Assembly: GCA_965218205.1 (NCBI GenBank)
Contig: OZ244590.1
Span: forward strand, 984,178 to 1,048,177
Reading direction: 5' to 3'
DNA: 64,000 bases
Source of the DNA: Spirochaetia bacterium
GTDB taxonomy: Bacteria > Spirochaetota > Spirochaetia > WTKD01 > G963693115
Shown here: piece by piece, positions 28,617-50,775 of the stretch
Layout of the letters: each line of letters opens with the position of its first letter
Numbering within the stretch: the first letter of the stretch is position 1
Program-made: the position numbers and the translations under genes
The notes under the pieces: model-generated
The model's input: only the letters and a program-made list of their open reading frames with translations
What the model was told of the DNA's origin: nothing
The model's database searches: none

Positions 28617-28708
28617 ATGGTATTGCATAGAAAGAAATAAAAACACAATAATAGTGTATTGTGTTATAATAAACATGATATAATACATAATAATAAAAGG
28701 AGATGTAT

Positions 28709-31700
28709 ATGGATGAAAGAATAAGTAGCATGAAAAAAATCGGGGGGGGGGGGGGGGTACACTCTCGATATAAGCAAAACATAACTCTCGTTGCACTGTT
28801 TTTAGTGCTAGCAATAGTTACCCTCGTACTCGTAGGATGTTCGGAGGGCAGTAGCAGTTCCTCATCAGGGGGAGGAGGAACTTCACCAGTAACCCCGACC
28901 CTTGCATCACTGTCCAATGTGCAGATACAGCCAGCAGGCAATGACGGGACGCTCTCGTTACGTTGGCAAGCCCCAAGCGATGCCACGCATGTAGTAGTAA
29001 ACGCTACCTCTACTGCACCAGCACAAGTCATACAAGTGCGTGTTCCTGCAATAGAATATCGTGCATTGTTTCAACAAGGACAATCGTATAAACTCAAAGG
29101 CTTGCAAGCCCTCACCAATTACACTGTAGAGATAGAAGCCCAGAAAAACACGGAAGTATCACCAAAAACAACCCGCTCTGTGACAACACTAATAGATACT
29201 ACTACCCCACAGGACACATTGACACAGGTAGGACTGGAGAAGTCGGGGGATGGCATAAAGATAACATGGGACAAAGAGCGACTAGCAGTAGGCAAGACAG
29301 ACATAGCAGAAGCAACAATAGTGGTAAAAAGCACGACTGGTGCTACAGTGCTTGCACAAGCTACCGTGCAGAACCTACAACAAGGGGAAGTTACGCTTCC
29401 AAACATCTCCACGCTTGCAGGCATATCCTATGATATAGAAATACGCTACAAAGACAGAAATGACAACACAAGCAGTCCTGCAACAGTACTAGCAGGCGTG
29501 CAAGCATCAGCACTCTCACAAACAGTAGCAGCACTACCAGAGGCAGAACTTACAGTAACAGCAAACGATAAAGACAATAGCCCAGCCGATGAAAGCCTGC
29601 TTATTAAGTGGGGGAGCTTTGCCTTTGGAACAGGCAACACAGCAAAAAGCCTCTTAGTACGAGTAACAGCAACTGCAACACAGACAGTAGTAGCAGAGGA
29701 GACAATAAACAAAGATACCAGTGCAACCAATGTCAGCGGAGCAACCGCACAAAACAAAGAATACGCCACTGTGTATGTAGCAAAAGATGGCATAGCACTC
29801 ACAAAACTCTACGGCACACTTACATACAAAGTAGAAATCTATGTCTCTCAAAACGGAAAATACTCCACTGCAGTGTCAAAAGAACAAGCAACAACCGACA
29901 AAACAACAAAGCCCGCGACCAATGTAAGTGCCGTAGGAGGAGCAACAAGCATAGTAGTAAGCTGGCAAGCACCCAATGTACGAGACTATGCAGGAGTGAC
30001 TATAACAGCAACAGAGAAAGATAGCGATAAAGTAGCAAAGACAGTAACAATAACAGACAGAGCAGTACGCAACACACAGATACCAGGCCTCAAAGCCACC
30101 ACCGAGTATACAGTGGCAGTAGTATCGATGGACTATGCAGGCAACAAAGGAACAGAAGCAACAGCCACAGTAGATACAGTAACAGATAGCACCGTTCCCG
30201 ATCCAGTAACAAACATACAAGCAAGCTATCCCTTCGTATCAGCAACAAAAGTAGGTGCACAGATAACATGGACAGCACCCGATGCAACAAAAGCCAAGAA
30301 CAAAGACATAAAAGAATACAGCATAAGCATACAAGAGAAAGGCATAGACACCACAGTACTGAACGAGAAAAAAATACCCTATCCCACAACATCGCTCTCT
30401 GTCGAAGCACTCAGTCAAGGCAAAACATACACAGTAACAATACAAGCAATAGACTATGCAGAAAACAAAAGTAGCCAAGAAACACAAGACATAACAACAC
30501 CCACCCCACTCACAGCACCCTCAGCAGAACTCTTTCAAAGCAAGCCCGCCCTCGTTACAACAGGAGCAATACAAATAAAAGCAACCTTTAGGCAAGCACC
30601 TGGATTAAATAAGTACTACACCCTGCGTATGTACGACAGCACTACACTGGTAGCAGAAAAAAGCATAACAGGAATAGCTACCACCATTAGCTTTGGCATA
30701 GCAGATGGCATAGAAGTATCAGCAACACAAGCAACTGCAAAACAATATAGCTTTACGTTTCTCACAGTAGAAAATAACAGAGTAAGCCCCCCAACAACAC
30801 TCACAGACAAAGTAGCAGTATACGATGTAATATCCACTGTCCCGCCCGCACCAGAAAGTCTCACTCTGCTTATTGCAGAATCAACAGCAACAAGCGATAC
30901 CGTACAGTACGAGTTTCAAGCAGGAACAATTACCGACAACCATAAAGCACCCAATGACAGCAAACTCAAACCAGCAAACATACAGTACAAAGTATACATA
31001 GTAGCAGGAGACCAGAGTACTAAAAGCATAGCAGAAATAAAAGCAATAACAGGAGTACAAACACAAAGTATAGCAGGAAGTAGCACTTTACGAGGAACAT
31101 TTATAGGAACAAAAGGAGCAGTATACACCATAGGCATAGAAGCAATAAACAGCCTGAACCCCTCTACCACAAAGAAAGCACAAAGCAAAGACCCCGCACT
31201 GATACAAACACTAGAACTGAGCACCATCCCCAGATCAAAAGCAACAGCCCCCTCTACCTCGTCCTTAGCAAACAAGCTGGTAGTATCACAATCAACAAAC
31301 ACAACAGGAACAATAAAGCTAGTACTCACACAATTAAGCACAATAACAGGAGCAAAAAACAAAGACGGCACAACAGTAACCAGCAATGATGAGCTAGTAT
31401 ACACCGTGTATGGCTTACAGAAAGACACAACCCCAACAGTAGCAGAAGTACAAAGAGGCAGAAAAGTAACTATAGGCACAGCAAGGAACGGAGTGTACAC
31501 AGTACCAGCGCTTAGCAGTATAGGCGTGACATCCCCAACAGTAGCAATAAAAGGAGCAACAAAGTATCACTTTGTAGTAGAAGTAGCCATAAAAACAGAC
31601 CCAAGCAAAAAAGCAGTATCGACAGTGGCAACAGTAACAACCGCATCACAAGCGACAGATCCCGCAGAAGTAAGCAACATACAAGTAAAAGGAGTAGAAG

Positions 31701-33367
31701 GAAGGAATGCAAAGCTATCGTGGACAGCCCCCAGCCTTACTGCAAGCCATAAAACAGACACAGGAGATACCCTAGCAGTAGCACAAGTATCGTACAAAGT
31801 ATACAAAGTAGCAAAAAGTGGCAGTACACAAAGGACAATAGCAGAGATAATAATAGCAGCAGGAGGAAGCCCCACAACAACAGCAGCAGGAACAACCAAC
31901 AGCACTCTGACAGGATTGACAGTAGGCACCACTTACGAAATAGTAGTACAAGCAGTAAACAGCACCGATCCCAACAAAGAATCAAGAGGAGTCCGCAAGG
32001 AGTTTATCGCAAAAGAAGCCTATGGAGCACCAGGAAAGCCCACCATACAAGCAAATGCACAAGGAGCTACCATAGTACTTACCATAACAGCCCCAACCGT
32101 AAAAGGAACAGCAGAAGACGGAACAACTACTCTCAGAGATAATCAAATAGATTACAAAGTATACTATATAGCCTCAAATACAAACATAAATGGAGCAACA
32201 GTAAAAACACAGGCACAAGCAGCAAGCGATGCACAAGTAGGAGCAGAAAAAGACGATGTGCCAACAGGAGCAACAAGCTATACAATACGCAACCTACGAT
32301 TGAATACAAAGTACTATATCACCGCAGTAGCAGTAAACAGCCTCAAAAAGACAAAGGTATCAGCAGAAGCAACAGCAGTCTCTGCCAGCACCCCAACAGT
32401 AGTGATAGGAAACACTACAAAGGTTTCAGCAACAGTAGGCACAGCACTCGCACAAAATACAACGAGAGTACTTACCAGCATTAGTCCTAGTGGACTATCA
32501 TTTACCTGTGATGAAAGCACAGTAGATAACGATAACAGCACCCTCAAACAAGAAACAGGCCTAACAGTAACATTTGCAAAAAATACCAATACAGTAACGA
32601 TAACAGGCACAGCAAATAAATCAAATATACATGATACTGCTATAACTGAGTATAACTATGGAGTAGTGGAATGTACCATTACCTCTGCGGGAGCAAACTC
32701 GGGACAAAAGGTACTTGCGACTATCAATGTAGAGACAGGGCTGGTGAAACTCCCAAGCGAAGTAGCGAGCTATTACAGACCAACAACAAAGACAGCACTG
32801 CAAGCTATTATCACTGCAGAAAAAACAAGACAAGGTTCAGGAGGAAACAATAACCCTAGCCCCAACCTCAACATGATAGATACGAGTGCTATTACTGATA
32901 TAAGTCAATTATTTTATCAAGATAAGACTTTTAACGGAGACATAACACAGTGGAATACCAGCAATATAGAGAATATGTTCCGTATGTTTGGGAAAGCAAA
33001 GGCTTTTAATCAAGATATAGGAGCTTGGGATACAAGTAAAGTTACTAGTATGGGTAGTATGTTTGTTGATGCAAGTGCTTTTAATCAAAACATAGGAAAC
33101 TGGAATTTGAGTAATGTAAAGGATGCGAGTGTTATGTTTTTTCGAGCAAGTGCTTTTAATCAAGACATAGGAAATTGGAATATTGGGAGTAGTTTGATTA
33201 GTGCTGGTGCTATGTTTGAGGATGCCACTAAATTTGATCAAGATTTATCATCATGGAAATTGTGTAAACTTCAAATTCAAGCAAGAAGTATGTTTAATGG
33301 TTCAGCTATGGCTGGCAAAACAGCACAGTACCCAAAGGTTAAAGGCGATGCAGCGTGTTCATCATAG
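28709..33367 (+). CDS. Giant surface lipoprotein: multiple Fn3/Ig-like repeats plus C-terminal DUF285/TIGR02167 26-residue repeats
   Basis: AAGGAG RBS 6 nt before ATG 28709 (track ORF starts 28703); signal peptide with lipobox 'LVLVGC'; about 8 tandem ~95-aa modules each with a 'W.AP' Fn3-like motif; C-terminus has 5 repeats of 'AFNQDIGNWNxSxVxxMxxMF'. Confidence 0.8.
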   Translation: MDERISSMKKIGGGGGVHSRYKQNITLVALFLVLAIVTLVLVGCSEGSSSSSSGGGGTSPVTPTLASLSNVQIQPAGNDGTLSLRWQAPSDATHVVVNATSTAPAQVIQVRVPAIEYRALFQQGQSYKLKGLQALTNYTVEIEAQKNTEVSPKTTRSVTTLIDTTTPQDTLTQVGLEKSGDGIKITWDKERLAVGKTDIAEATIVVKSTTGATVLAQATVQNLQQGEVTLPNISTLAGISYDIEIRYKDRNDNTSSPATVLAGVQASALSQTVAALPEAELTVTANDKDNSPADESLLIKWGSFAFGTGNTAKSLLVRVTATATQTVVAEETINKDTSATNVSGATAQNKEYATVYVAKDGIALTKLYGTLTYKVEIYVSQNGKYSTAVSKEQATTDKTTKPATNVSAVGGATSIVVSWQAPNVRDYAGVTITATEKDSDKVAKTVTITDRAVRNTQIPGLKATTEYTVAVVSMDYAGNKGTEATATVDTVTDSTVPDPVTNIQASYPFVSATKVGAQITWTAPDATKAKNKDIKEYSISIQEKGIDTTVLNEKKIPYPTTSLSVEALSQGKTYTVTIQAIDYAENKSSQETQDITTPTPLTAPSAELFQSKPALVTTGAIQIKATFRQAPGLNKYYTLRMYDSTTLVAEKSITGIATTISFGIADGIEVSATQATAKQYSFTFLTVENNRVSPPTTLTDKVAVYDVISTVPPAPESLTLLIAESTATSDTVQYEFQAGTITDNHKAPNDSKLKPANIQYKVYIVAGDQSTKSIAEIKAITGVQTQSIAGSSTLRGTFIGTKGAVYTIGIEAINSLNPSTTKKAQSKDPALIQTLELSTIPRSKATAPSTSSLANKLVVSQSTNTTGTIKLVLTQLSTITGAKNKDGTTVTSNDELVYTVYGLQKDTTPTVAEVQRGRKVTIGTARNGVYTVPALSSIGVTSPTVAIKGATKYHFVVEVAIKTDPSKKAVSTVATVTTASQATDPAEVSNIQVKGVEGRNAKLSWTAPSLTASHKTDTGDTLAVAQVSYKVYKVAKSGSTQRTIAEIIIAAGGSPTTTAAGTTNSTLTGLTVGTTYEIVVQAVNSTDPNKESRGVRKEFIAKEAYGAPGKPTIQANAQGATIVLTITAPTVKGTAEDGTTTLRDNQIDYKVYYIASNTNINGATVKTQAQAASDAQVGAEKDDVPTGATSYTIRNLRLNTKYYITAVAVNSLKKTKVSAEATAVSASTPTVVIGNTTKVSATVGTALAQNTTRVLTSISPSGLSFTCDESTVDNDNSTLKQETGLTVTFAKNTNTVTITGTANKSNIHDTAITEYNYGVVECTITSAGANSGQKVLATINVETGLVKLPSEVASYYRPTTKTALQAIITAEKTRQGSGGNNNPSPNLNMIDTSAITDISQLFYQDKTFNGDITQWNTSNIENMFRMFGKAKAFNQDIGAWDTSKVTSMGSMFVDASAFNQNIGNWNLSNVKDASVMFFRASAFNQDIGNWNIGSSLISAGAMFEDATKFDQDLSSWKLCKLQIQARSMFNGSAMAGKTAQYPKVKGDAACSS
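28742..28757 (+). repeat. G16 homopolymeric tract inside codons 5-10 of the giant lipoprotein gene, next to an A7 run
   Basis: Sixteen consecutive G encode GGGGG; a tract this long is hypermutable by slipped-strand mispairing. Confidence 0.9.
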
Positions 33368-33581: not shown

Positions 33582-34421
33582 TTAGTTAGGACTCTCTTTA
33601 GAAGTACAACTATTCTTCCATGTAGGTGGTGTATATTTGTTTCTGCTAGTCTTAAAGGCATCTTTACAATATATAACTTTGTCTACATTCCATTTAGATA
33701 AGTTTTTATTAAATGGAGAAGTACTTACAAAAGTATCAGTCATGTCAGTTACTTTATTTACATTCCATTTACTAATATCGTCATTAAATTTAGTGGATGC
33801 TCCAAATAAAGATTTCATATTTGTTATATTGCTAGTGTCCCAACCTGAGATAATTCCATTAAAATTTCCATAAATATTATTTTTGTTGTCTGATGATAAA
33901 ACATTTTTCAAGGATGTCATTTTACCAATATCAATATGGAGTAAATTAGGAGTATTATTATCAATAGTACTATCATCATTAGTATCCATTATATTCTTTA
34001 TGTACTTATCTAATTCTTCAGGTGTGCTAAAGGATCTTGTATACTGTAATTTCAACTTAAACTGTCCTTTTTGTTCATTGCCTTTTCGTATAAGGTAAAT
34101 AACAAAATCTTTAGTCAAGTCATTAAAATTGCTATCTCTATTGTTATCTGGCGTACCTGATAATTGCACTCCATTATCTACTTTCTTAAGTGAAAGTCCA
34201 CTAGGCAAAGGTTTATCTGTAGTATATGTATCTGACTTATTATATCCATCAAAAGTCATTGTAGATATACTGCTAATAGTCTCATTTATAGAAAGTGTAA
34301 ATTCTGGTAATTTTGATAAAATTGACCCTGAGCTTGATGTTGTGTCACTTTCACAACTTACCAATAAAATACTTGTAACACTAATTACAAGAGTAAAAAA
34401 TAATAATTTTGTTAGTTTCAT
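33582..34421 (-). CDS. DUF285/TIGR02167-repeat lipoprotein
   Basis: Lipobox 'ILLVSC'; the C-terminal half has 'WDTSNITNMKSLFGASTKFNDDISKWNVNKVTDMTDTF' repeats homologous to the neighbouring giant protein. Confidence 0.7.
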   Translation of the reverse strand: MKLTKLLFFTLVISVTSILLVSCESDTTSSSGSILSKLPEFTLSINETISSISTMTFDGYNKSDTYTTDKPLPSGLSLKKVDNGVQLSGTPDNNRDSNFNDLTKDFVIYLIRKGNEQKGQFKLKLQYTRSFSTPEELDKYIKNIMDTNDDSTIDNNTPNLLHIDIGKMTSLKNVLSSDNKNNIYGNFNGIISGWDTSNITNMKSLFGASTKFNDDISKWNVNKVTDMTDTFVSTSPFNKNLSKWNVDKVIYCKDAFKTSRNKYTPPTWKNSCTSKESPN

Positions 34422-39876: not shown

Positions 39877-41469
39877 TTATTGTATGGTATTTTGTAGAGC
39901 ATTAAAGTAGTATTCTACTCCATCCATAAGGGCATCCCATGATGCTTCAATGATATTTTCGTTTACCCCAATGGTTTCCCAGTCATGTGTTCCATCCGAA
40001 AAAGATATAAACACACGAACTTTTGCGGAAGTGTTATTTTCAGGATCAATCACTCGTACTCTATAATCAATAAGTTTTATACTGTTAATGGTAGGCAAAT
40101 CATGATCCAAAGAATGTCGTAACGCAGTATCAAGTGCTTCAACAGGGCCATTTCCTGTAGCAGCTCCCATAAGTTCTTTTCCTTTATACTGTACAAAAAT
40201 TCTGCACACTGTCTGGGCGGGATTAGTAAAGCTCTTAAACTGTTCAATGTGGTAGTTTTTTAATTGTATCATTGATTTCATTTTTTTTAACGCTCTTAGG
40301 ATGATAAGCTCAAATGATGCCTCTGCCGTTTCGTATTCATACCCATCTTGTTCGCGTTGTTTTAATTCCTGTATAATACCTTGTACAATAGGATCATTTT
40401 TTGAAAACTCACCGTGCTTTTGTAAATATGCTACTATGGTGGATTTTCCTGCAAGTTCAGAAAGTAAGATACGGCGTTCATTTCCTACTTTTTTAGGCGA
40501 GATATGTTCCATAAGCTCTTTGTTTTTTAATACCACATCTGCATGTTGTCCTGCTTTATGGCTAAATGAAGCACGCCCTACAAATGGATCGCGAGGATTA
40601 GAGATAATATTTGCTTGTTCTGCTACAAAGCGTGATAATGAAGTGAGATGAGTTATTTCGCTTGCACAATGAGCAGTGTAGCGAGTATCTTTTAGCACTA
40701 AATTAGGTATTATAGTGCAGAGGTTTGCATTGCCCGATCTTTCTCCCCAGCCATTGATAGTTCCTTGTATATGTATTGCTCCTTCTTCAAGACATATGAG
40801 GCTATTTGCAGTAGCAACACCGCAATCGTCATGAAAATGCCCACCAAGTGGTGCGATCGTTTGTTTTGGAAGATTGCTCATAATGTACTGTACTTCATGA
40901 GGAAGCGTTCCTCCATTGGTATCACAGAGTACCAGTAAATCAGCACCTGCTTCAGTTCCTACTGTAAGTACTTCAATAGAGTACTCACTATCCAGTTTAG
41001 AGCCATCAAAAAAATGCTCTAAATCAAGAATTACCGTTCTCCCATGCTCTTTGAGTATTCGTACTGATTCAAACGTTGCTTCAAGATAGGCTTCTTTTGA
41101 TGCACGAATAACATCGTTCACATGTGCAATCGATGACTTTGCCACTATAGTGACTATTTCTGTTTCGGCATTCAGAAGAGCATTTATATGATTATCATGT
41201 TTTATATCAGATGATATATTCGTACTTGGTTTTGCTGTAGAACCAAATGCAGCGATTTTTGCATGTTGTAAATTGAGTTTTTTTACTTGGATAAAAAACT
41301 CATTTTCTTTTTCACTGGAAAGAGGAAATCCTCCTTCAATGTAATCTACTTGAAATTCATCAAGTTTTTGAGCTATTTTGAGTTTATTTTCTAAAGTATA
41401 ATTGATTTGCATGCCTTGCATGCCATCACGTAGGCTGGTGTCATATATTTCTATATTTTTACTCTGCAT
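39877..41469 (-). CDS. cimA: Citramalate synthase / LeuA-family paralog with C-terminal LeuA-dimer domain
   Basis: 530 aa; 'YDTSLRDGMQ' and 'HFHDDCGVATANS' DRE-TIM metallolyase motifs; length and C-terminal regulatory domain are typical of CimA. Confidence 0.65.
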   Translation of the reverse strand: MQSKNIEIYDTSLRDGMQGMQINYTLENKLKIAQKLDEFQVDYIEGGFPLSSEKENEFFIQVKKLNLQHAKIAAFGSTAKPSTNISSDIKHDNHINALLNAETEIVTIVAKSSIAHVNDVIRASKEAYLEATFESVRILKEHGRTVILDLEHFFDGSKLDSEYSIEVLTVGTEAGADLLVLCDTNGGTLPHEVQYIMSNLPKQTIAPLGGHFHDDCGVATANSLICLEEGAIHIQGTINGWGERSGNANLCTIIPNLVLKDTRYTAHCASEITHLTSLSRFVAEQANIISNPRDPFVGRASFSHKAGQHADVVLKNKELMEHISPKKVGNERRILLSELAGKSTIVAYLQKHGEFSKNDPIVQGIIQELKQREQDGYEYETAEASFELIILRALKKMKSMIQLKNYHIEQFKSFTNPAQTVCRIFVQYKGKELMGAATGNGPVEALDTALRHSLDHDLPTINSIKLIDYRVRVIDPENNTSAKVRVFISFSDGTHDWETIGVNENIIEASWDALMDGVEYYFNALQNTIQ

Positions 41470-41498: not shown

Positions 41499-43010
41499 TT
41501 ACTCTTGTTGTAATTCATAATGGTTTATTGCATGTATAAATGCTTGAACACTTGCTTCTAATATATTAGTAGAAGAAGCTCGTCCTATACATTCACGATT
41601 ATTTATGCTTGTTACCGCTACTGCTTCACCAAGTGCATTTGTTCCTGGACTAATTGCTGTCACATGATATTCTTCAAGAACGATGGTGTACTCCACTAAA
41701 GAAGATATAGCACTGAAGATAGCATCAATAGGACCATCTCCTGAGGCTTCTGCTTTTTTTATAGTTCCTTTGTAGCTAATGCTCACCACTGCTTTAGGGT
41801 CCGTCCCTGGTGTAAGAAACATAGAAAAATCTTCAATTTTGAAAAATTGACTCTGATTATTTTCTATAAAGCTACTTGCTATTACAATAAGGTCGGTATC
41901 ATAAATTTCTTTTTTCTTATCAGCTATTTCAAGGAATTTTTGATATATTTCTTGTATCTGCTGTTCTTCTACATGAATATTAAGATATTGTAATCTATTG
42001 CGTAACCCATGTAATCCTGAATGTCTTCCTAGTACAATATTTTTGCTTGTGCGTCCAACATAGTCAGGAGTAAGAATTTCATATGTACTTCTATGTTTTA
42101 GTATTCCGTCTTGGTGAATGCCTGCCTCGTGAGCGAAAGCATTTTCTCCTATAATAGCTTTATTTCGAGGAATAGGAAATCCAATAGTAGAGCTTACTAG
42201 TTTTGATATAGAGAAGATTTTTTTATGATCGACATGTGTTTCTACTCCCCAATAGTCTTTTCTAATACCTAATCCAGTTATCACCTCTTCCATAGCAGCG
42301 TTTCCTGCACGTTCTCCAATTCCGTTTACGGTAACTTCGGCTTGACGAGCTCCAGCCTTAATAGCACTAAGAGTATTTGCTGTTGCTAATCCTAAGTCAT
42401 CGTGACAGTGTATAGAAATAGTGATAGCATCTATATTTTTTACATGCTCTTTTAAGTAATGTATGTAATCATACACTTCTGTTGGGGTAGCATAGCCTAC
42501 TGTATCAGGAATATTTACTACATCTGCACCAGCTTCAATTACCGCTTGCACTATTTGTGCTAAAAAATCTTTTTCTGTACGCAATGCGTCTTCGGGAGAA
42601 AACTCTACTTCTGCACAGCGTTTTTTTGCATATGCTACTGCCCATGTTGCAATATCAATTATTTCTTCTTTTGATTTTTTTAGTTTATATTGTCGATGAA
42701 TGGGGGAGCTAGCAAGGAAAGTATGAATACGAGGTTTTGCTGCTGGTTCTAATGCCTTTGCTGCTTGATCAATGTCTTTTTGTACTGCTCTTGCAAGACC
42801 AGTGATAGTAGCATTTCTCACCTGTTGAGAAATAAGCTGTGTAGCATTGAATTGTTTTGGTGAAGATATAGGAAAACCAGCTTCTATAACATCAATGCCC
42901 ATATCAGCAAGAGAATGAGCAATTTTTACTTTTTGTTCAATATCCATTGAGGCTCCGGGAGATTGTTCTCCGTCTCTCAAGGTTGTGTCAAATACTTTTA
43001 CTTGTTCCAT
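41499..43010 (-). CDS. leuA: 2-isopropylmalate synthase
   Basis: 503 aa; 'FDTTLRDGEQSPG', 'HCHDDLGLATANT' and the LeuA dimerisation domain; AAGGAGG RBS. Confidence 0.8.
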   Translation of the reverse strand: MEQVKVFDTTLRDGEQSPGASMDIEQKVKIAHSLADMGIDVIEAGFPISSPKQFNATQLISQQVRNATITGLARAVQKDIDQAAKALEPAAKPRIHTFLASSPIHRQYKLKKSKEEIIDIATWAVAYAKKRCAEVEFSPEDALRTEKDFLAQIVQAVIEAGADVVNIPDTVGYATPTEVYDYIHYLKEHVKNIDAITISIHCHDDLGLATANTLSAIKAGARQAEVTVNGIGERAGNAAMEEVITGLGIRKDYWGVETHVDHKKIFSISKLVSSTIGFPIPRNKAIIGENAFAHEAGIHQDGILKHRSTYEILTPDYVGRTSKNIVLGRHSGLHGLRNRLQYLNIHVEEQQIQEIYQKFLEIADKKKEIYDTDLIVIASSFIENNQSQFFKIEDFSMFLTPGTDPKAVVSISYKGTIKKAEASGDGPIDAIFSAISSLVEYTIVLEEYHVTAISPGTNALGEAVAVTSINNRECIGRASSTNILEASVQAFIHAINHYELQQE

Positions 43011-43050
43011 ACTACCTCCTTAGATTGTATGTGTCCTTAACAATGCAATG

Positions 43051-43087
43051 AATAATAAAAAAGCCGTCCATGAAGAACGGCTTTTTT
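43051..43087 (-). terminator. Intrinsic terminator hairpin immediately upstream of leuA, the attenuator terminator
   Basis: Minus-strand RNA reads GCCGUUC-UUCAU-GGACGGC (a 7-bp stem including one G.U) followed by UUUUUUAUUAUU, about 50 nt before the leuA ATG; flanked by A6 and T6, so it can also fold on the + strand. Confidence 0.6.
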
Positions 43088-43106
43088 ATCCTTCTTCCTT
43101 CTATCT

Positions 43107-43157
43107 TTATGAGATAAGAAGAAGAATTACTGATTGTATTGTTATATTTCTTTCCAT
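43107..43157 (-). CDS. Putative leu/ilv leader peptide MERNITIQSVILLLIS
   Basis: 16 codons, including three consecutive CUU Leu codons and four Ile codons. It sits between a consensus promoter and the terminator, and the downstream GAAGGAAGAAGG segment can pair with either the Leu codons or the terminator's left arm. No clear SD sequence. Confidence 0.4.
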   Translation of the reverse strand: MERNITIQSVILLLIS

Positions 43158-43185
43158 AAAAATACCATTTTGTATCTTTTTTTCT

Positions 43186-43214
43186 ATTATAAATAGAAAA
43201 AACAAATATGTCAA
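43186..43214 (-). promoter_or_regulatory. Consensus sigma70 promoter driving the leuA leader
   Basis: Minus strand reads TTGACA, a 17-nt spacer, then TATAAT, a perfect match to consensus. Confidence 0.6.
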
Positions 43215-43286
43215 GTGTAACGGAAACTCGTGTGCAACCTCAAAGACTCAGTGCAATATTTTTGCATTTGCTTTATACTATGAGTA

Positions 43287-44870
43287 ATGTCTATGTTTTA
43301 TTCTCAAGAGGAGACAAAACAATTTCTTAGTACCCATACTATTGTGCCAGTAGCTTCTCTTATACCCATGAACTTTGATAGTTCTCTTTCTATTTTTCTT
43401 AAGGTAAAAGGAAACTTCTTGCTTGAATCGGCTGAAAGTGCCGAATCGATGGGACGATATTCTTTTATTGCAATAGAAGCACAGAGAAAATTTATACTAC
43501 AAGAAACAAGCGTGGAAGATTGGAAAAAAAATAGCATAAATGGGGAATTTGATCGTATAGCAATAAAACATATGAGAAATCCCCTTGATTACATAAGTGA
43601 ACAAATGAAATTATTTCATGTTGATTCTGATAGCTACTATACATTACCTCCTTTCTGGGGAGGGCTTTTAGGCTACTTTGGATATGAAGGCATTCAATAC
43701 TTTGAAACAATAGAGAACTTACAAAAGAAAAGTTTATTGGATATGCCGCTAGGAATTTTTATTATTCCGCAGCAATTACTTGTAGTAGATCATCTTAAAA
43801 GACAGCTTTGGATTATTTCTTATATTGAAAAGCAGGAGCTTGAACAAAGTGGTATATCTTTTGAAAATACCTTTACTGCTATTACAAAAAAACATGAAGA
43901 GATTATTGAAAAAGTAACAGCACCATTACCCTATATTGCGTGGGAATATGAAAAAAGTATTCGAGAACGATCAGCACGTGTACATACTATAAAAAAATTA
44001 AATACGCTAGAAAGACTGAGTGTACTAGAGGATATGTTAGAACCACAATATCATACAAGTGAAGATGCATTTAAAGAAAATGTTCGATATTGTGTAGAAC
44101 GAATTTATGCAGGAGATATTATTCAAGTAGTGCCTTCTCGTCAAATCTCTATTCATTTTCAACATAAGGATGAAGTCTTATTTTATTTGAGACTGCGTAA
44201 TGTAAACCCATCTCCTTATATGTTCTTTCTTCGCTTTGATGATTTTACCATTATAGGAAGTTCCCCCGAAAGTATGGTGTCTCTTGATGAAAATAGAACT
44301 ATGAGCATTAAGCCAATTGCAGGTACTATTCAAAGAGGGAGTACAAAAAAAGAAGAAGCTCTGTTACGTACTACTCTTATTTCTGATGAAAAAGAACGTG
44401 CTGAACATCTTATGCTAGTTGATCTTGCAAGAAATGATCTGCATCGTATTGCGGTTCCAGGTACAGTTACTGTTCCTGATTTTATGCAGATACAGGCTTT
44501 TTCCCATGTGTTCCATATTGTGTCAAATGTGAAAGGAGAGCTACTTCCTGAATGTAATGGCTTTGATTTGATTAAAGCAAGTTTTCCTGCTGGAACTTTG
44601 AGTGGAGCTCCTAAGATAGAAGCTATGAATATTATTGGAAGAATAGAATCGTATATGCGAAATGTATATGGTGGTATGATAATGGTAATGGGGTTTAATG
44701 AGTACATAGATTCTTGCATTGCTATACGTACCACTGTAGTTCATAAAAATCGTGCATATTTGCAAGCAGGGGCAGGTATTGTAGCTGATTCCAACGAAGA
44801 GAAGGAATGGCAGGAAACAGAGCTAAAACTTGGTGCTTTGCTTCAGAGCTTTGTGGATATACGCGAATAA
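43287..44870 (+). CDS. trpE: Anthranilate synthase component I
   Basis: 527 aa; chorismate-binding domain with 'LMLVDLARNDL' and 'GAGIVADS' motifs. Confidence 0.88.
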   Translation: MSMFYSQEETKQFLSTHTIVPVASLIPMNFDSSLSIFLKVKGNFLLESAESAESMGRYSFIAIEAQRKFILQETSVEDWKKNSINGEFDRIAIKHMRNPLDYISEQMKLFHVDSDSYYTLPPFWGGLLGYFGYEGIQYFETIENLQKKSLLDMPLGIFIIPQQLLVVDHLKRQLWIISYIEKQELEQSGISFENTFTAITKKHEEIIEKVTAPLPYIAWEYEKSIRERSARVHTIKKLNTLERLSVLEDMLEPQYHTSEDAFKENVRYCVERIYAGDIIQVVPSRQISIHFQHKDEVLFYLRLRNVNPSPYMFFLRFDDFTIIGSSPESMVSLDENRTMSIKPIAGTIQRGSTKKEEALLRTTLISDEKERAEHLMLVDLARNDLHRIAVPGTVTVPDFMQIQAFSHVFHIVSNVKGELLPECNGFDLIKASFPAGTLSGAPKIEAMNIIGRIESYMRNVYGGMIMVMGFNEYIDSCIAIRTTVVHKNRAYLQAGAGIVADSNEEKEWQETELKLGALLQSFVDIRE

Positions 44871-44902
44871 ATAGAGTATAATAATGCATATAGCGAGGTT
44901 GT

Positions 44903-45487
44903 ATGATAATAGTAATAGATAATTATGATTCGTTTACCTATAATATTGTAAGTTATTATCAAGGGAAAAAGAAAGATATACGAGTCATACGTAATGATGA
45001 GCAGAGTATTGAGCAAATAGTATCACAGAATCCAGAATGTATTATTCTTTCCCCTGGACCTAAATCTCCTACAGAAGCAGGAGTATGTCTTCGTTTAATA
45101 CAGCATAATGCTACTATGAAATCACCAATACCTTTGTTTGGAGTATGTTTAGGATGTCAAGCCTTAGCACAAGCATACGATGCACATATCATTACTGCAA
45201 AAAAAATGTATCATGGCAAAGTATCGAGTATAGAACATGATGGAAAAGGAGTGTTTAGTGGTATAGAAAATCCTATTGTACAAACACGATACCACTCTCT
45301 TGTTATTGATAAAGCTACATTGTCTTCTGAGTATGAAATAAGTGCTGTAAGCGAAGATGGTGAGATTATGGGAATTCGGCATACACGGTTGCCTTTTGAG
45401 GGAGTGCAGTTTCATCCTGAATCTATTGCGTCAGTGCATGGGACTACTATACTTGATAATGCTTTATCCTACATGAAGCGTACATGA
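44903..45487 (+). CDS. trpG: Anthranilate synthase component II (glutamine amidotransferase)
   Basis: 194 aa; 'MIIVIDNYDSFTYN' N-terminus and 'GVCLGCQAL' GATase motif. Confidence 0.88.
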   Translation: MIIVIDNYDSFTYNIVSYYQGKKKDIRVIRNDEQSIEQIVSQNPECIILSPGPKSPTEAGVCLRLIQHNATMKSPIPLFGVCLGCQALAQAYDAHIITAKKMYHGKVSSIEHDGKGVFSGIENPIVQTRYHSLVIDKATLSSEYEISAVSEDGEIMGIRHTRLPFEGVQFHPESIASVHGTTILDNALSYMKRT

Positions 45488-45506
45488 GTATATGGAGGCA
45501 TAATAT

Positions 45507-45662
45507 ATGACTTGGAAAGAAATAGTATGGAATACCATAAAATGGATATTCATAATTATTTGGTATATATTCAAAATATCACTTATATTATTCATAATAG
45601 GTGTTTCTGCATTTATAATAATAGTAGATAGAATAAATAAATTTAATCGTTCGGGGAGATGA
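45507..45662 (+). CDS. Small Trp-rich hydrophobic ORF between trpG and trpD (51 aa; MTWKEIVWNTIKWIFIIIWY...)
   Basis: GGAGG RBS 8 nt upstream; 4 Trp in the first 19 residues; predicted single TM; absent from the track because it is under 60 aa. Confidence 0.4.
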   Translation: MTWKEIVWNTIKWIFIIIWYIFKISLILFIIGVSAFIIIVDRINKFNRSGR

Positions 45663-45748
45663 AAATATGTATACCGAAACATTTATTAAATTAAAAAAAA
45701 GTTATTTTGTACAAAACGGGAATAAAGAGAATAGGGAGTACTATTACT

Positions 45749-46810
45749 ATGTTGAGAGATTGTATTGAAAGTATACTTGAACAAAAGAATATAAGTCTCG
45801 TTCAAGCAAAGGCTATTATGGATCAGATAGCAAGTGGTGCATTATCGCCTGAAGAAATAGCTATGTTTCTTACTGCTATGAGAATGAAGCAGGAAAGTGC
45901 AGATGAGATTGCAGGGGTAGTAATGAGTGCAAAAGAGCATGCTATTTCTTTGCCACTGGTAGCAAAATATGATACATTATGTGATATTGTAGGTACAGGG
46001 GGTGATGGAAGTAATACTATCAATATTTCTACTCTCAGTGGTTTTATTGCAGCAGGGGCAGGAGCGAAGGTTGCAAAGCATGGAAACAGAGCAGTATCTT
46101 CAAAATGTGGAAGTGCAGATGTACTTGAAGCTCTTGATATAAATATTCAGGCATCAAAAGAAACAGTAGCACATATGATTGATAAGGCAGGTATGGGGTT
46201 TATGTTTGCTCCTCTGTATCATCCAGCAATGAAATATGTTGCTCCTGTTCGTAAAGCATTAAAGATACGTACTTTGTTTAATATATTAGGACCACTTATC
46301 AATCCTGCATCTGTTCCAAATATACTTTTAGGAGTATACAGTCGTGAAAAAATGGAGCTTATGGCACATGCTCTTCTCCGTTTACATACTGCTCATGCAA
46401 TGGTGATATGGTCTCATGACAATACCGATGAAATAAGTGTGAGTGCAGACACAGAAGTCATGGAAGTAAAAAATCTTGAAATAAAACGCTACACTATTCA
46501 GCCAAAAGAGTATGGGTTTCATTATCAAAAAGAGAGTGATATACAAAAAGTACAGCAGGAAATACAAGGAGGAACTGCTACCGATAATGCACAAAAAATA
46601 GTACAGGTGCTGCGACAAAAGAGCATAGGTATAGTAAGAGATATTGGTATAATAAATGCAGCAGCACTGTTGTATGTCTCAGGACTATGCTCTTCTATTG
46701 AAGAAGGCATTGACAAAGCAAATAAATCTATTGATAGCGGAAAAGCCTTGCAGTGTTTAGAGAACATGCAGATGATAAGTAAAGGCAATATGCAAAGTAA
46801 TGCTATTTGA
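45749..46810 (+). CDS. trpD: Anthranilate phosphoribosyltransferase
   Basis: 'CDIVGTGGDGSNT' PRPP-binding motif; ATG at 45749 (the track ORF starts at a TTG at 45707). Confidence 0.85.
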   Translation: MLRDCIESILEQKNISLVQAKAIMDQIASGALSPEEIAMFLTAMRMKQESADEIAGVVMSAKEHAISLPLVAKYDTLCDIVGTGGDGSNTINISTLSGFIAAGAGAKVAKHGNRAVSSKCGSADVLEALDINIQASKETVAHMIDKAGMGFMFAPLYHPAMKYVAPVRKALKIRTLFNILGPLINPASVPNILLGVYSREKMELMAHALLRLHTAHAMVIWSHDNTDEISVSADTEVMEVKNLEIKRYTIQPKEYGFHYQKESDIQKVQQEIQGGTATDNAQKIVQVLRQKSIGIVRDIGIINAAALLYVSGLCSSIEEGIDKANKSIDSGKALQCLENMQMISKGNMQSNAI

Positions 46811-46862: not shown

Positions 46863-47597
46863 ATGAATACTACTGTTTCTCCAATAAGCATTTCAACATT
46901 ACTTTTATTGTTTATTCCTATAAGTATATCACTTACTATTCTCTTTCGTAAAAAAGTTGCATTTGGTAATACACTCTATGCTTTTTTACGTATGATAGTA
47001 CAGCTTATCATTGTTGGGTTTACATTAACCTTTATTTTTGCCTCAAACAATGGGTTTTTTGTGATAATAGTACTATTAGTCATGATATTGTTTTCTAGCT
47101 GGATATCCATCAGAACTCTTCATAAAGGGAAAAAGCATATATTTCCCTCTGCTTTTTTAGCTATTCTTATTGGTGGCGGTTTTCATGTATTTTTTATGAC
47201 TCAAATAATTATACGCATTCGTCCCTGGTTTTATCCTACCTCAATGATACCTTTAGCAGGAATGATATTCTCAAGTTCATTAAATGGTATTAGTCTTTTT
47301 ATTGAAAGATTTCAAAGAGAGAGAAATAATGGTGTATTAATACATCAAGCTGAAAAATTTGCATTTCATGCTGCACTTATTCCTGCAATAAATAATTTTT
47401 TTGCGGTAGGGCTAGTATCGTTTCCAGGACTTATGACAGGACAAATATTGTCAGGCATATCTCCTTTTGTTGCAGTAAGGTATCAGATTGTAATACTTAC
47501 AATGATTGTAAGTTCACAGATTCTTGTCATACATTTATTTTCACGGTTTATTAGAAAAAAACATGAGCTATGTTTGTGCACAGAGGATAGAGTGTAG
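46863..47597 (+). CDS. fetB: FetB/YbbM (UPF0014) family ABC-type permease
   Basis: 'RMIVQLIIVGFTLTFIF' and 'AALIPAINNFFAVGLVSFPGLMTGQILSGISPF' closely parallel the E. coli FetB motifs; no cognate ATPase is adjacent. Confidence 0.7.
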   Translation: MNTTVSPISISTLLLLFIPISISLTILFRKKVAFGNTLYAFLRMIVQLIIVGFTLTFIFASNNGFFVIIVLLVMILFSSWISIRTLHKGKKHIFPSAFLAILIGGGFHVFFMTQIIIRIRPWFYPTSMIPLAGMIFSSSLNGISLFIERFQRERNNGVLIHQAEKFAFHAALIPAINNFFAVGLVSFPGLMTGQILSGISPFVAVRYQIVILTMIVSSQILVIHLFSRFIRKKHELCLCTEDRV

Positions 47598-47614
47598 TAT
47601 ACTATACTTATAGT

Positions 47615-49099
47615 ATGATGAGTAAGATTAAATACAAGGCATATACATTTGATGATGTTCTTCTGCTCCCATCATATAGCGATGTTGTTCCTTCCGAAAT
47701 TTCCCTTAAAACACAGATAACGAGAAATATTTCCTTAGAAATTCCTTTAATATCCGCAGCTATGGACACAGTTACAGAAACTAAAATGGCAATCGCTCTT
47801 GCCGAACAAGGAGGAATTGGTATTATTCATAAAAATAATACTATACAAGAACAATCTGCAATGGTGTCTGCAGTAAAAAAGTATATCTCAGGAGTAGTCA
47901 GAAACCCAGTTACTATATCATCGTATAAAAAGGTGTCAGATCTCATGGATATAATACAGAGGCATCATTTTACTGGTATGCCTGTTGTCGATGATGGAGT
48001 ACTAAAAGGCATTGTAACGAGCAGAGATATTCGCTATGCTCAAGATTTTTCAGTTTCTATCGCTTCAATTATGACAAAAAGAGAACGGCTTATTACTGCT
48101 ACAGGTTCTACTTCTTTGGATGATATAAAGCATTTAATGTATAAACATAGATTGGAAAAAATCATACTTATTGATAGCAATTCTCAAGATACTTTGCGAG
48201 GGCTGGTTACTATGAAGGATATTGAAAAATCTATTTATTTTCCTTTTGCCACTAAAGATAAAGCAGGAAAGTTAAGGGTAGGGGCTGCTCTTGGGACCTC
48301 ACCCGATACAGAGGAACGAGCAGAAGCCTTAGTTGAGGCAGGAGTTGATATTTTAGTAGTAGATAGTGCTCATGGACATTCAAAAGGAGTGCTGGAAACT
48401 ATTCAATATTTGCGTAATCGCTTTAGTTCTGTAGATATTATTGGAGGAAATGTCTCTACTCCTGAAGCTGCTATAGCGTTGCAGAAAGCAGGGGTTGATG
48501 CTATAAAAATTGGTATGGGACCTGGCTCCATATGCTCAACAAGGATTATTGCAGGAATAGGAGTGCCTCAGATTACTGCTCTGCTTACTATTTATGAGAA
48601 AATGAAAGATTCTAATATTCCTCTGATTGCTGATGGAGGAATTCGTTATTCTGGGGATATTGCAAAAGCATTTGCAGCAGGAGCAGATACCGTGATGCTA
48701 GGGAGTATGTTTGCAGGTACAGAAGAATCTGCAGGAGAAATTGAAATATTTAATGGAAGAAATTTTAAGGTATATCGAGGTATGGGATCTTTAGGAGCTA
48801 TGAATAAGCTGGGTGATAGAAATCGTTATTTTCAAGATAAAATTGTAAGTACTAAAACAGTGCCTGAAGGAGTAGAAGGAAGAGTACCGTATAAGGGAAA
48901 TATTTCATCGGTTATACAACAGCTTGTAGGGGGAGTACGACAAAGTTTAGGTTACACAGGATGTAAGTCTATTTATGAGATGAAAGAAAAAGCTGAGTTT
49001 GTAGAAATAACAAATGCAGGCATGCGTGAAAGTCATGTTCATGATATACAGATAACAAAGGAAGCACCAAACTATGTGCGTGATTCTTTTTGCCCATAA
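47615..49099 (+). CDS. guaB: IMP dehydrogenase
   Basis: 494 aa; TIM barrel with a CBS pair, 'GIGPGSICSTR' catalytic Cys loop. Confidence 0.92.
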   Translation: MMSKIKYKAYTFDDVLLLPSYSDVVPSEISLKTQITRNISLEIPLISAAMDTVTETKMAIALAEQGGIGIIHKNNTIQEQSAMVSAVKKYISGVVRNPVTISSYKKVSDLMDIIQRHHFTGMPVVDDGVLKGIVTSRDIRYAQDFSVSIASIMTKRERLITATGSTSLDDIKHLMYKHRLEKIILIDSNSQDTLRGLVTMKDIEKSIYFPFATKDKAGKLRVGAALGTSPDTEERAEALVEAGVDILVVDSAHGHSKGVLETIQYLRNRFSSVDIIGGNVSTPEAAIALQKAGVDAIKIGMGPGSICSTRIIAGIGVPQITALLTIYEKMKDSNIPLIADGGIRYSGDIAKAFAAGADTVMLGSMFAGTEESAGEIEIFNGRNFKVYRGMGSLGAMNKLGDRNRYFQDKIVSTKTVPEGVEGRVPYKGNISSVIQQLVGGVRQSLGYTGCKSIYEMKEKAEFVEITNAGMRESHVHDIQITKEAPNYVRDSFCP

Positions 49100-49155
49100 T
49101 GGTAAATGGTATTTCTATTTTCTATAATAATATGTAATAAGATCGTATAAAAAGT

Positions 49156-50775
49156 ATGCAAACAAAACAGGATAGTATTCTTATTGTTGATTTTGGTTCT
49201 CAATATACTCAGCTTATTGCAAGACGAGTGCGAGAACAAAATATATTCTCTATTGTTGTTCCTTATACATATAACAAAGAACAAATACATTCGCTTGTTA
49301 TCAAGGAGAATATGACAATAAGAGGGATTATTCTATCAGGAGGCCCTGGCTCTGTTGTTGAACATGATCATCCTGCTATACCACAGTATGTATTTGAATA
49401 CGAACTTCCACTGCTTGGTATTTGTTATGGTATGCAAGCCTTAGTGTTACATGAGCATGGTACTGTCCAATCTTCTGTATCAACACAGTCGCCTCATACA
49501 TCAGATGGAAACAATGGGGAATATGGAAAAACCGATATTTTTTTTGATACGAAAAGTAAGATTTTTTCAAGCATTGTTCAGAAACACAATCATGTTTCTC
49601 AGTCCATTACTGTATGGATGAGTCATGGAGATAGTGTTGATGCACTTCCTAGTGGATATACTATACTGGCTCGTACAGAGAACGGTGTTATTGCAGCAAT
49701 ACAGCATAAGACAAAAGCAATTCTTGCATTACAGTTTCATCCCGAGCTCAGCCATACACAGTATGGCGAAACTATATTAGCGTACTTCTTGTTTGATATG
49801 TGTCATTGTTCAAGAACATGGAATATCGCAACATTGATTGATGATTACATTACTGATGTTCAACGCACAGTACAGGATAAGCAGGTGCTTTTAGCTATTT
49901 CTGGTGGAGTAGATTCTGCAGTACTTGCGTTATTACTCCATAAAGCGTTGGGCAATAAATTGCATTGCTTTTTTGTTGATAACGGCTTGCTCCGCAAGAA
50001 TGAAGCACATATGGTACTACATACTCTATCTGATACTATGGGCTTAACTGTCAAAAAAATAGAAGCACAGCATTTGTTTTTACAAGCACTAGAACACAGT
50101 AGTGATCCAGAAGAAAAAAGAAAAATAATTGGGAGAATGTTTATACAAGTATTTGAGCAAGAAGCGAAAAGCATTCCTTCTTTAGATTTTCTTGCACAAG
50201 GGACAATATACCCTGATTGTATAGAGTCTGCCCGTTCTCAAGCAAACACAGCACATGTAATAAAATCTCATCATAATGTAGGGGGGCTTCCAGAGAGGCT
50301 TTCTCTACGATTATTGGAGCCACTGAGTAATCTGTTTAAGGATGAAGTAAAAAAGCTAGGGAAAGCATTAGGATTAGATGACAGTATTTTATACAGGCAT
50401 CCTTTTCCTGGTCCAGGGTTAGCGGTACGAATTCTTGGAAAAATAGATGAACATAAAATTCAGAAATTGCAAGCTGCTGATTCTATTTTTATTGAGGAAC
50501 TTCATGCGTATAATTTATACCACTCGGTAAGTCAAGCGTTTGCTGTATATATTCCCGTAAAAAGTGTCGGGGTAGTGGGAGACAGAAGATCGTATGAAGA
50601 TATCATTGCATTGCGAGCAGTTGAGACAGTGGACTTTATGTCAGCACGATGGGCTGCATTACCACAGAAATTTCTTGCTCATGTTTCTAATAAAATAGTA
50701 AATTCAGTACAGGGCGTAAGCAGAGTGGTATATGATATATCAGATAAACCACCAGCTACTATAGAATGGGAATAG
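49156..50775 (+). CDS. guaA: GMP synthase (glutamine-hydrolysing)
   Basis: 539 aa; GATase domain 'GICYGMQ', the 'SGGVDSAV' PP-loop and a C-terminal dimerisation domain ending '...IEWE'. Confidence 0.92.
   Translation: MQTKQDSILIVDFGSQYTQLIARRVREQNIFSIVVPYTYNKEQIHSLVIKENMTIRGIILSGGPGSVVEHDHPAIPQYVFEYELPLLGICYGMQALVLHEHGTVQSSVSTQSPHTSDGNNGEYGKTDIFFDTKSKIFSSIVQKHNHVSQSITVWMSHGDSVDALPSGYTILARTENGVIAAIQHKTKAILALQFHPELSHTQYGETILAYFLFDMCHCSRTWNIATLIDDYITDVQRTVQDKQVLLAISGGVDSAVLALLLHKALGNKLHCFFVDNGLLRKNEAHMVLHTLSDTMGLTVKKIEAQHLFLQALEHSSDPEEKRKIIGRMFIQVFEQEAKSIPSLDFLAQGTIYPDCIESARSQANTAHVIKSHHNVGGLPERLSLRLLEPLSNLFKDEVKKLGKALGLDDSILYRHPFPGPGLAVRILGKIDEHKIQKLQAADSIFIEELHAYNLYHSVSQAFAVYIPVKSVGVVGDRRSYEDIIALRAVETVDFMSARWAALPQKFLAHVSNKIVNSVQGVSRVVYDISDKPPATIEWE

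Follow-up and report, generated by a model that had tools for sequence, protein, structure and literature searches.

Probable leader-peptide attenuation of leuA-cimA

In a 64,000-nucleotide (nt) stretch of the metagenome-assembled genome of an uncultured Spirochaetia bacterium (contig OZ244590.1; hereafter, the window), the minus strand upstream of leuA and cimA carries an element that, as judged by comparative sequence analysis, is most probably a ribosome-mediated, or leader-peptide, transcription attenuator of these two genes. The region contains a short leader open reading frame (ORF) enriched for cognate codons, an intrinsic terminator, an antiterminator that excludes it, and regulatory codons that lie within the first of the pairing segments. 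An earlier note on this DNA had claimed the textbook leu/ilv attenuation topology for the region, and each of the sequence-level predictions of that claim that could be tested was borne out. The features that make up the element and its operon, all on the minus strand, are as follows.

43209-43214 (-): -35 hexamer TTGACA; read directly and by promoter scan
43186-43191 (-): -10 hexamer TATAAT, 17-nt spacer; consensus match 12/12
43158-43179 (-): small hairpin of the 5' untranslated region (UTR), AAGAUAC...GUAUUUU, abutting the leader AUG; from folding
43107-43157 (-): leader ORF MERNITIQSVILLLIS plus TAA, 16 codons; from the ORF listing and direct reading
43112-43127 (-): segment 1, AUU CUU CUU CUU AUC U, comprising the regulatory Ile/Leu codons and forming the 5' side of the 1:2 helix; from folding
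43088-43106 (-): segment 2, AGAUAGAAGGAAGAAGGAU, pairing with segment 1 or, via 43090-43097, with segment 3; from folding
43072-43080 (-): segment 3, CCGUUCUUC, terminator 5' arm and part of its loop, the antiterminator partner of segment 2; from folding
43057-43087 (-): intrinsic terminator (3:4 helix), A6, GCCGUUC, UUCAU loop, GGACGGC, U6; from folding, terminator scan and covariation
43015-43021 (-): leuA Shine-Dalgarno (SD) sequence AAGGAGG; direct reading
41499-43010 (-): leuA, 2-isopropylmalate synthase, first regulated gene; NCBIfam NF002086, 689 bits against a cut-off of 532
39877-41469 (-): cimA, citramalate synthase, second regulated gene; TIGR00977, 550 bits against a cut-off of 450

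The promoter is the perfect sigma-70 consensus that had been claimed, and TTGACA-N17-TATAAT occurs only once in the window, with 0.03 copies expected from shuffled sequences. Its -10 box ends 28 nt before the leader ATG, so the 5' UTR would be about 21 nt long; the earlier figure of about 22 nt agrees with this if counted from a typical transcription start. The leader ORF itself runs from an ATG at 43157-43155 to a TAA at 43109-43107, and its 16 codons include the predicted run of three consecutive Leu codons between Ile codons, ATT CTT CTT CTT ATC (43127-43113; residues ILLLI). The Leu codon used, CUU, is a common one (28% of Leu codons). We rejected a 35-codon, TTG-extended version of this ORF because its start falls within the -35 box. 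Both downstream gene products score above their NCBIfam cut-offs, in agreement with the proposed operon of leuA and a cimA-like gene, and cimA is followed by the convergent gene carB.

Three helices compete for shared bases

The 176-nt leader folds with an energy of -44.5 kcal/mol (z = -6.6), and none of 200 shuffled sequences was equally stable. In the minimum-free-energy fold, the helix between segments 1 and 2 (1:2) coexists with the terminator. The 1:2 helix joins AUUCUUCUUCUUAUCU (43127-43112) to AGAUA...GGAAGAAGGAU (43106-43088), with an energy of -13.8 kcal/mol. Segment 2 directly follows the leader stop codon and has the family core GAAGGAU; within it lies a purine segment, GAAGGAAGAAGG (43101-43090), that had been described as complementary both to the Leu codons and to the left arm of the terminator, and the folds contain both pairings. 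When the transcript is made to end before segment 4, GAAGAAGG (43097-43090) pairs with CC-UUCUUC (43080-43072) to form the 2:3 helix at -6.6 kcal/mol (shuffle p ~0.02). Eight bases of segment 2 are common to the 1:2 and 2:3 helices, their 1:2 partners being the I-L-L-L codons, and the 2:3 helix takes five of the seven core bases of the terminator 5' arm. Thus, the folding check suggested by the earlier note for mutually exclusive structures found the 1:2, 2:3, and 3:4 helices competing for shared bases.

The terminator stem, GCCGUUC (43081-43075) with GGACGGC (43069-43063), has 7 bp including one G-U pair; the flanking A6 and U6 extend it to 13 bp (-16.6 kcal/mol), and the U-run occupies 43062-43057. 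The 7-bp GC stem and U-run were therefore as first described, but the stated distance of about 50 nt to the leuA ribosome-binding site was not: the U-run ends 35 nt before the leuA SD sequence and 46 nt before the leuA ATG. In a strict scan of the window (perfect stem of at least 5 bp with at least 3 G-C pairs, followed by a U-run), the leu hairpin was the sole canonical intergenic intrinsic terminator in the 64 kb; a simpler scan returned 0 sites and missed this hairpin. Other modes of termination may predominate in this genome.

Segment 2 (GAAGGA) looks SD-like, and segments 1 and 3 (UUCUUC/UCCUUC) look anti-SD-like. The latter could in principle pair with the leuA SD sequence at 43015-43021, and the full-length fold does not contain that pairing.

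The element recurs upstream of leuA in related spirochetes

LeuA-based scans of genome and metagenome collections returned one close relative of the window, L001, whose LeuA is 99% identical, together with about 160 relatives at about 50% identity, mostly Planctomycetota, from which the element was absent. A protein search then supplied closer relatives, with LeuA proteins 53-78% identical, whose contigs we compared. The resulting set comprises 14 loci (the window, L001, L161, L162/L163, and L164-L173) that belong to the same LeuA clade at 53-99% identity. It includes Alkalispirochaeta sp. (L173), and the nearest named LeuA homologs in the protein search were spirochaetal; the earlier guess that the lineage was most likely a spirochete is confirmed, the source being a member of the Spirochaetia.

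All 13 relatives have the same architecture directly upstream of leuA and in the same orientation. Each of the 14 loci has a sigma-70 promoter scoring 9-12 of 12, with a -35 box of the TTGAC/TTGAT type throughout, and each relative has a short ORF, a GAAGGAU-like segment 2, and a terminator 5' arm and loop reading (G/A)UCCUUC. The search of orthologous leuA upstream regions that had been proposed as a check thus recovered the micro-ORF and its Leu run in 13 further loci. Leader ORFs in the relatives span 14-29 codons, with two leaders of 29 residues, and encode the following peptides.

L001: MERNITIQSIILLLIS
L161: MYKKVSTLKIILLIL
L162: MYRFTVKYSILLLFSVT
L164: MLFCTQKNTLIILLR
L165: MISNKFNLRLTILISS
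L167: MKYNRILTILFAFLL
L168: MKLMKLIILTLIIILN
L169: MKNFAHILLLIISP
L170: MRVVCIVRNSDLLLLAPR
L171: MNHTPITKYTNIKIILLL
L172: MNGMLNMTTILLSLLGLIIIGGRGVGVGG
L173 (Alkalispirochaeta sp.): MSLFPAMALHLLPILGLIIIGTRYMRVEG

The N-termini of these peptides are mutually unrelated, and all 14 leaders contain at least three Leu codons. Ile and Leu together make up 100 of 248 leader residues (40%), compared to 17% in the long ORFs of the window. In 13 of the 14 loci, all but L166, the Leu frame begins with ATG and stays open until a stop codon before or inside segment 2, and the other two frames of the same span contain stop codons in many loci; thus, it is the Leu frame of the pyrimidine-rich segment 1 that is kept open. 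The earlier claim of mixed Leu and Ile regulatory codons held fully for Leu, which is present in every leader, but less so for Ile, whose codons vary in number, with one each in L162 and L170. Val is rare.

Of the relatives with gene tables long enough to show it, 10 have a second LeuA-like, cimA-type gene after leuA. L170 is the sole locus without cimA downstream, having leuA alone, and its leader carries a pure LLLL run; this single case hints that the codon mix of the leader may track the content of the operon.

One member of the set lies in an animal genome assembly. L164 (GCA_031769215.1, JAUZWB010000728.1, 2330-5623) is a relative of the leuA-cimA operon found in the assembly of the scallop Ylistrum balloti, whose annotation lists its LeuA among the scallop proteins (XP_060085203.1, '2-isopropylmalate synthase-like'). 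A bacterial sigma-70 promoter, leader ORF, and intrinsic terminator are all present on the contig, which most likely derives from a spirochete symbiont or contaminant within the eukaryotic assembly.

Pairing is maintained across lineages

Folding each locus separately gave mutually exclusive 1:2, 2:3, and 3:4 helices in 14 of 14 cases. Depending on the locus, the 1:2 and 2:3 helices have 6-13 bases of segment 2 in common, and in most loci the shared bases find their 1:2 partners mainly in Ile/Leu codons; formation of the 2:3 helix ties up 4-13 bases of the terminator 5' arm. Terminator energies ranged from -13 to -29 kcal/mol, and those of the antiterminator from -6.1 to -10.7 kcal/mol in the 12 loci of low GC content.

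We examined covariation in an alignment of 12 sequences that spans segment 2 through the U-tract. In this alignment, pairing in the terminator amounts to 98.1%, with four compensatory pairs, and its score was reached by 0 of 500 shuffles. The 6-bp antiterminator core is 97.2% paired, compared to 22-67% when its partner is slid along the sequence. One pair in this core is compensatory (A-U to G-C, in L168 and L171), arising from the coordinated change of GAAGGAU/GUCCUUC to GAGGAU/GUCCUC, and three further pairs vary on one side yet stay paired. Changes in segment 3 leave it able to pair with either partner: a G-to-A change in L166, L169, and L170 is matched by a change in segment 4 and leaves the pairing with a U in segment 2 intact, and a C-to-U change in the window allows a G-U pair in each of the two helices.

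Alignments made with MAFFT that included segment 1 misaligned its short motifs, and we judged the 1:2 helix by the per-locus folds and by comparing native with chimeric duplexes. Sequences of this helix differ by lineage yet remain complementary (AUU/AAU in L161 and UUACU/AGUAA in L165), with further complementary extensions in L168 (UAAUU/AAUUA) and L167 (AUCCUUA/UAAGGAU). Native duplexes were more stable than cross-lineage chimeras for segment 1 with segment 2 (permutation p = 0.013) and for segment 2 with segment 3 (p = 0.0001), a test that is confounded by GC content and relatedness. We conclude that the helices of the claimed topology stay paired through compensatory changes.

A covariance model built from segment 2 and the terminator (R1) detected the element once in the window, with 56.8 bits; its next match was the reverse complement of that site, at 34.9 bits. 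R1 also recovered two loci outside its seed, L172 and L173, at 27 and 33 bits, and gave no match in 159 non-spirochete leuA loci, in agreement with a regular-expression search. No Rfam family reached its gathering score in the window region, searched at E <= 10, or in 12 relatives, searched at the gathering score. The best match was Phe_leader (RF01859), whose alignment runs along the 1:2 hairpin and terminator and whose score of 35.3 bits falls short of its threshold of 55; the Lactococcus leu/phe leader (RF01743) scored 20 bits against a gathering score of 70, and Leu_leader (RF00512) was not listed in the window region even at E <= 10. T-box models likewise gave no match in the window region at E <= 10 or in the 12 relatives at the gathering score. 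The sub-threshold Rfam matches, which include the small RNAs and leaders BTnc231, GibS, and Phe_leader, were driven by the terminator.

The leader start codon lies close to the promoter in most loci

No SD sequence precedes the leader AUG in the window, though leuA has AAGGAGG, and the L001 leader likewise lacks one. The earlier note had listed a missing SD sequence as grounds to doubt that the leader is translated. The absence stood; the comparison across loci, however, suggests leaderless or near-leaderless initiation instead of no translation. In 10 of 14 loci, the start codon follows the -10 hexamer at a distance of 7-13 nt; the gap is 16 nt in L161, 23 nt in L171, and 28 nt in both L001 and the window. 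Transcription commonly begins about 7 nt after the -10 box, so that in most members the transcript would begin at the AUG or a few nucleotides from it. Taken by itself, this spacing suggests that translation of the sensor ORF would start on an mRNA with little or no leader.

Putting these points together, one might picture a Spirochaetia-wide family of Leu/Ile-sensing attenuators, with the sensor ORF on a leaderless or near-leaderless mRNA without an SD sequence, that co-regulates leucine synthesis and isoleucine synthesis by the citramalate route. We hold this broader proposal only tentatively and regard it as somewhat more doubtful than not. If it were true, 70S-type leaderless initiation would be coupled directly to an intrinsic-terminator decision, and the spacing of 7-13 nt from the -10 box to the AUG offers a testable hint of such a link between leaderless initiation and terminator-based attenuation.

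Two loci depart from the common pattern at the start codon. L171 has the SD-like sequence AAGAGGAA upstream of its leader, the sole such sequence before any leader of the family. It lies in a 6-codon ORF (L171 160-195; ATG AAG AGG AAT ACC ATA TGA, MKRNTI*) that starts 6 nt past the -10 box and whose stop codon overlaps the leader ATG (ATGA), and the leader may be translated by coupling from this leaderless mini-ORF. In L166 (2350-2420), the leader shares the frame ...ILLLIISP* with that of its sister L169 (1260-1320) and reads ATA ATA where L169 has ATG. The L166 ATA could be a non-canonical start, a sign of a decaying leader, or an assembly error; a TTG-initiated ORF, MQAYYFLLFLHE, exists there in another frame.

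The window lineage also has its own 5'-UTR feature. Relatives lack the insert of about 20 nt that carries the window's 5'-UTR hairpin (43158-43179), their leader AUG standing 7-13 nt past the -10 box. The hairpin is restricted to the lineage of the window and L001, is retained in L001 despite loop substitutions, and holds an extra ATG that opens an 8-codon ORF (MVFLWKEI*), also conserved in L001.

Proposed mechanism and its limits

We propose that the element would work as follows. Transcription would start at the consensus promoter, and a ribosome would translate the 16-codon leader ORF while RNA polymerase advances. With charged tRNA-Leu, and probably also tRNA-Ile, plentiful, the ribosome would reach the UAA stop codon, where it would abut or cover segment 2, or, after its release, segment 1 would re-pair with segment 2. 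Either way, segment 3 would be left to pair with segment 4, and the terminator would release the transcript 46 nt before leuA. With tRNA-Leu or tRNA-Ile uncharged, the ribosome would stall on AUU-CUU-CUU-CUU-AUC and mask segment 1; segment 2 (GAAGAAGG/GAAGGAU) could then pair with the newly made CC-UUCUUC, removing five of the seven core bases of the terminator 5' arm, and with that arm sequestered the polymerase would read on into leuA-cimA. Given textbook footprint sizes, the ribosome geometry would fit such an attenuator: when a Leu codon occupies the A site, the ribosome is expected to leave 43101-43088 free, and at the stop codon it is expected to reach the edge of segment 2.

In this scheme, we infer translation of the leader ORF, stalling, amino-acid dependence, and a kinetic choice between the 2:3 and 3:4 helices. 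The predicted control of leuA-cimA by leucine is well supported because Leu codons are universal among the leaders and lie within segment 1. Control by isoleucine is less certain; joint control by both amino acids is plausible because most leaders have Ile codons next to the Leu run and 10 relatives carry a cimA-type gene after leuA.

Several observations weigh against the attenuator, beyond the missing SD sequence and the confounding of the chimera test already described. The 2:3 helix of the window is short and far weaker than the terminator (-6.6 versus -16.6 kcal/mol), and its covariation is thin, with a single compensatory pair and 11 of 500 shuffles scoring as high. The 1:2 helix of L171 is weak, and the homologous frame of L166 has no canonical start codon. 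In equilibrium folds with segment 1 masked, the full-length RNA still preferred the terminator in every state, and read-through must therefore be kinetic, as in classical attenuators. Because attenuation is kinetic, these modeled folds neither refute the scheme nor serve as support for it. Finally, according to the summary in PMC1262725, attenuator-like leaders of ilvB and leuA in Streptomyces coelicolor did not behave classically when mutated.

Alternative explanations

Some of these same observations would suit a switch between terminator and antiterminator that is operated not by a translating ribosome but, for example, by an RNA-binding protein, a small molecule, or a tRNA; the ORF would then be a by-product of a U/C-rich segment 1. 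Segment 1 must be pyrimidine-rich to pair with GAAGGAU, which alone yields Leu, Phe, or Ser codons, so a Leu run might arise without being read; the lack of an SD sequence in the window, the lack of a canonical start in L166, and the caution urged by the S. coelicolor precedent point the same way. However, a mere by-product would not account for a Leu frame that, in 13 of 14 loci, runs open from an ATG to a stop codon before or inside segment 2, with the other frames often stopped, nor for N-terminal codons that vary freely, as a leader peptide predicts. Moreover, an untranslated RNA has no reason to keep the start codon 7-13 nt past the -10 box, as it is in 10 of the 14 loci. The RNA, of about 100 nt, has no conserved ligand-type fold apart from the three helices, and it matched no T-box, ppGpp/ykkC, or other riboswitch model. 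We therefore consider a switch operated without a ribosome unlikely.

Slightly less likely still is an independent small-RNA gene, or a constitutively terminated leader that acts in trans or damps leuA without sensing amino acids. A strong promoter with a strong terminator about 130 nt on would give an abundant short RNA, some of the sub-threshold Rfam matches are to small RNAs, and attenuator-derived small RNAs with trans functions are known, rnTrpL being an example (PMC6614838). Yet those terminator-driven matches score 32 and 26 bits, far under the gathering scores of 80 and 115 bits, and at each of the 14 loci the element directly precedes leuA and is co-oriented with it, also where the upstream neighbor is a different one. 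A plain small RNA would also leave unexplained a conserved antiterminator that overlaps the Leu codons as well as the terminator. A trans role in addition to attenuation is possible. As for chance co-occurrence in AT-rich intergenic DNA, or a bidirectional terminator serving the neighboring genes, the hairpin is indeed terminator-like on the plus strand too, being flanked by A6 and U6 and scoring 34.9 bits with the covariance model on the reverse complement. But leuA and the upstream trpE-like gene are divergent and both transcribed away from the site, so no gene ends at the hairpin, which instead lies within the leuA-cimA 5' leader; reading the plus strand turns the G-U pair into a C-A mismatch that weakens the stem; and neither the perfect promoter, expected 0.03 times per window, nor the recurrence of the architecture in 13 further loci is explained. 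The comparative data effectively refute this last explanation.

Comparison with known leaders

The element shares a promoter-proximal ORF and the 1:2, 2:3, and 3:4 helices with leuL of Escherichia coli and Salmonella (Leu_leader, RF00512) and with the trp, his, thr, and phe leaders. As in leuL, consecutive Leu codons lie inside segment 1 and an intrinsic terminator precedes leuA. Unlike that class, the spirochete element has no SD sequence, is much shorter, has a weaker antiterminator, and does not belong to the class by sequence or by covariance model. E. coli leuL uses rare CUA codons, whereas the spirochete leader uses the common CUU, and the downstream genes differ as well, being leuA-cimA in the spirochete and leuABCD in E. 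coli and Salmonella.

The E. coli ilvGMEDA and ilvBN leaders exert multivalent attenuation through Leu, Ile, and Val codons. The spirochete leaders resemble them in their mixed branched-chain codons and in preceding an operon that serves more than one branched-chain amino acid. They differ in that Leu is constant, Ile frequent, and Val rare, and multivalent control here would be an inference from those codons. The link to isoleucine also differs, running through the citramalate synthase of the spirochete operon rather than the threonine-deaminase route of ilvGMEDA/ilvBN.

Outside Proteobacteria, leader-peptide control of branched-chain genes has been described for the Leu-rich peptide of the Staphylococcus aureus ilv-leu operon (PMC5794164), in Listeria (PMC5864092), and in Corynebacterium (PMC11857589, PMC10272879). 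Like the Lactococcus leu/phe leader (RF01743) and that of S. aureus ilv-leu, the spirochete element comes from an AT-rich genome and places a Leu-rich leader peptide before branched-chain genes, although phylum and operon content differ. The Lactococcus and S. aureus leaders show that the mechanism is not confined to Proteobacteria.

Two actinobacterial systems were also compared. As reported in bioRxiv 10.1101/834739, ribosome stalling on the cognate codons of leaderless polycysteine short ORFs in mycobacteria remodels the RNA structure downstream and unmasks a ribosome-binding site. Those ORFs resemble the spirochete leaders in placing the sensory ORF at or near the mRNA 5' end without an SD sequence, the leaderless start being suggested by spacing in our case; unlike those short ORFs, which act on translation, the spirochete element has a canonical intrinsic terminator and would act on transcription. 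The actinobacterial LEU element 5' of leuA is described in PMC1262725 as folding into a pseudoknot through pairing of its Leu run with the leuA SD box; unlike the spirochete element, it has no clear terminator.

T-boxes were found in 0 of 6 Spirochaetes genomes (PMC2494555), and an unrelated Leptospira ilvB motif has been proposed as a weak riboswitch candidate (PMC8632094). We found no description of a spirochete leu attenuator in the literature searched, which did not cover one main comparative survey, so an earlier description is possible. The mechanism itself is textbook, and no new mechanism is opened by it. What the element would add is an extension of classical leader-peptide attenuation to Spirochaetota, an under-studied phylum from which T-boxes are reported absent, and a compact, conserved, and apparently uncatalogued RNA family, represented by 14 loci and a working covariance model. 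The model could enter RNA-family catalogues and be used to annotate leuA-cimA regulation in uncultured spirochetes. The placement of leuA-cimA under a Leu/Ile-rich leader suggests that the synthesis of leucine and that of isoleucine by the citramalate route are coordinated.

Flanking DNA and neighboring genes

Just 5' of the -35 box, the window (43221-43256, minus strand) and L001 (2750-2800) share a conserved block, TTGCAC..N..G(T)GCAC.CA.GAGTTTCCGTTACAC, which could be an UP element or a regulator site. Beyond this block, the upstream DNA is unrelated, with the trpE-like gene in the window and a different, 199-aa divergent ORF in L001, placing a synteny breakpoint about 45 nt upstream of the leu promoter. 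Across the family, the upstream neighbor is divergent in seven loci, from gene tables, and in L001, from its ORF listing; in L169 it is co-directional, and four loci show no upstream gene.

The divergent operon upstream of the element in the window (43287-46810, plus strand, and 46863-50775) begins with the trpE-like gene, then trpG and trpD, the trpE-like product falling below its NCBIfam cut-off (444 versus 518). The next genes encode a UPF0014 protein, guaB, and guaA, and are not trpC/F/B/A. No leader or terminator was found ahead of the trpE-like gene, whose start is only about 70 nt beyond the leu promoter. We rejected a plus-strand trp leader, there being no fitting promoter or Trp-codon ORF.

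Elsewhere in the window, 28703-33367 (plus strand) encodes a 1554-aa protein that combines fibronectin type III repeats with a DUF285 domain ('Mycoplasma protein of unknown function') at its C-terminus, and a second DUF285 protein, of 279 aa, adjoins it at 33582-34421 (minus strand).

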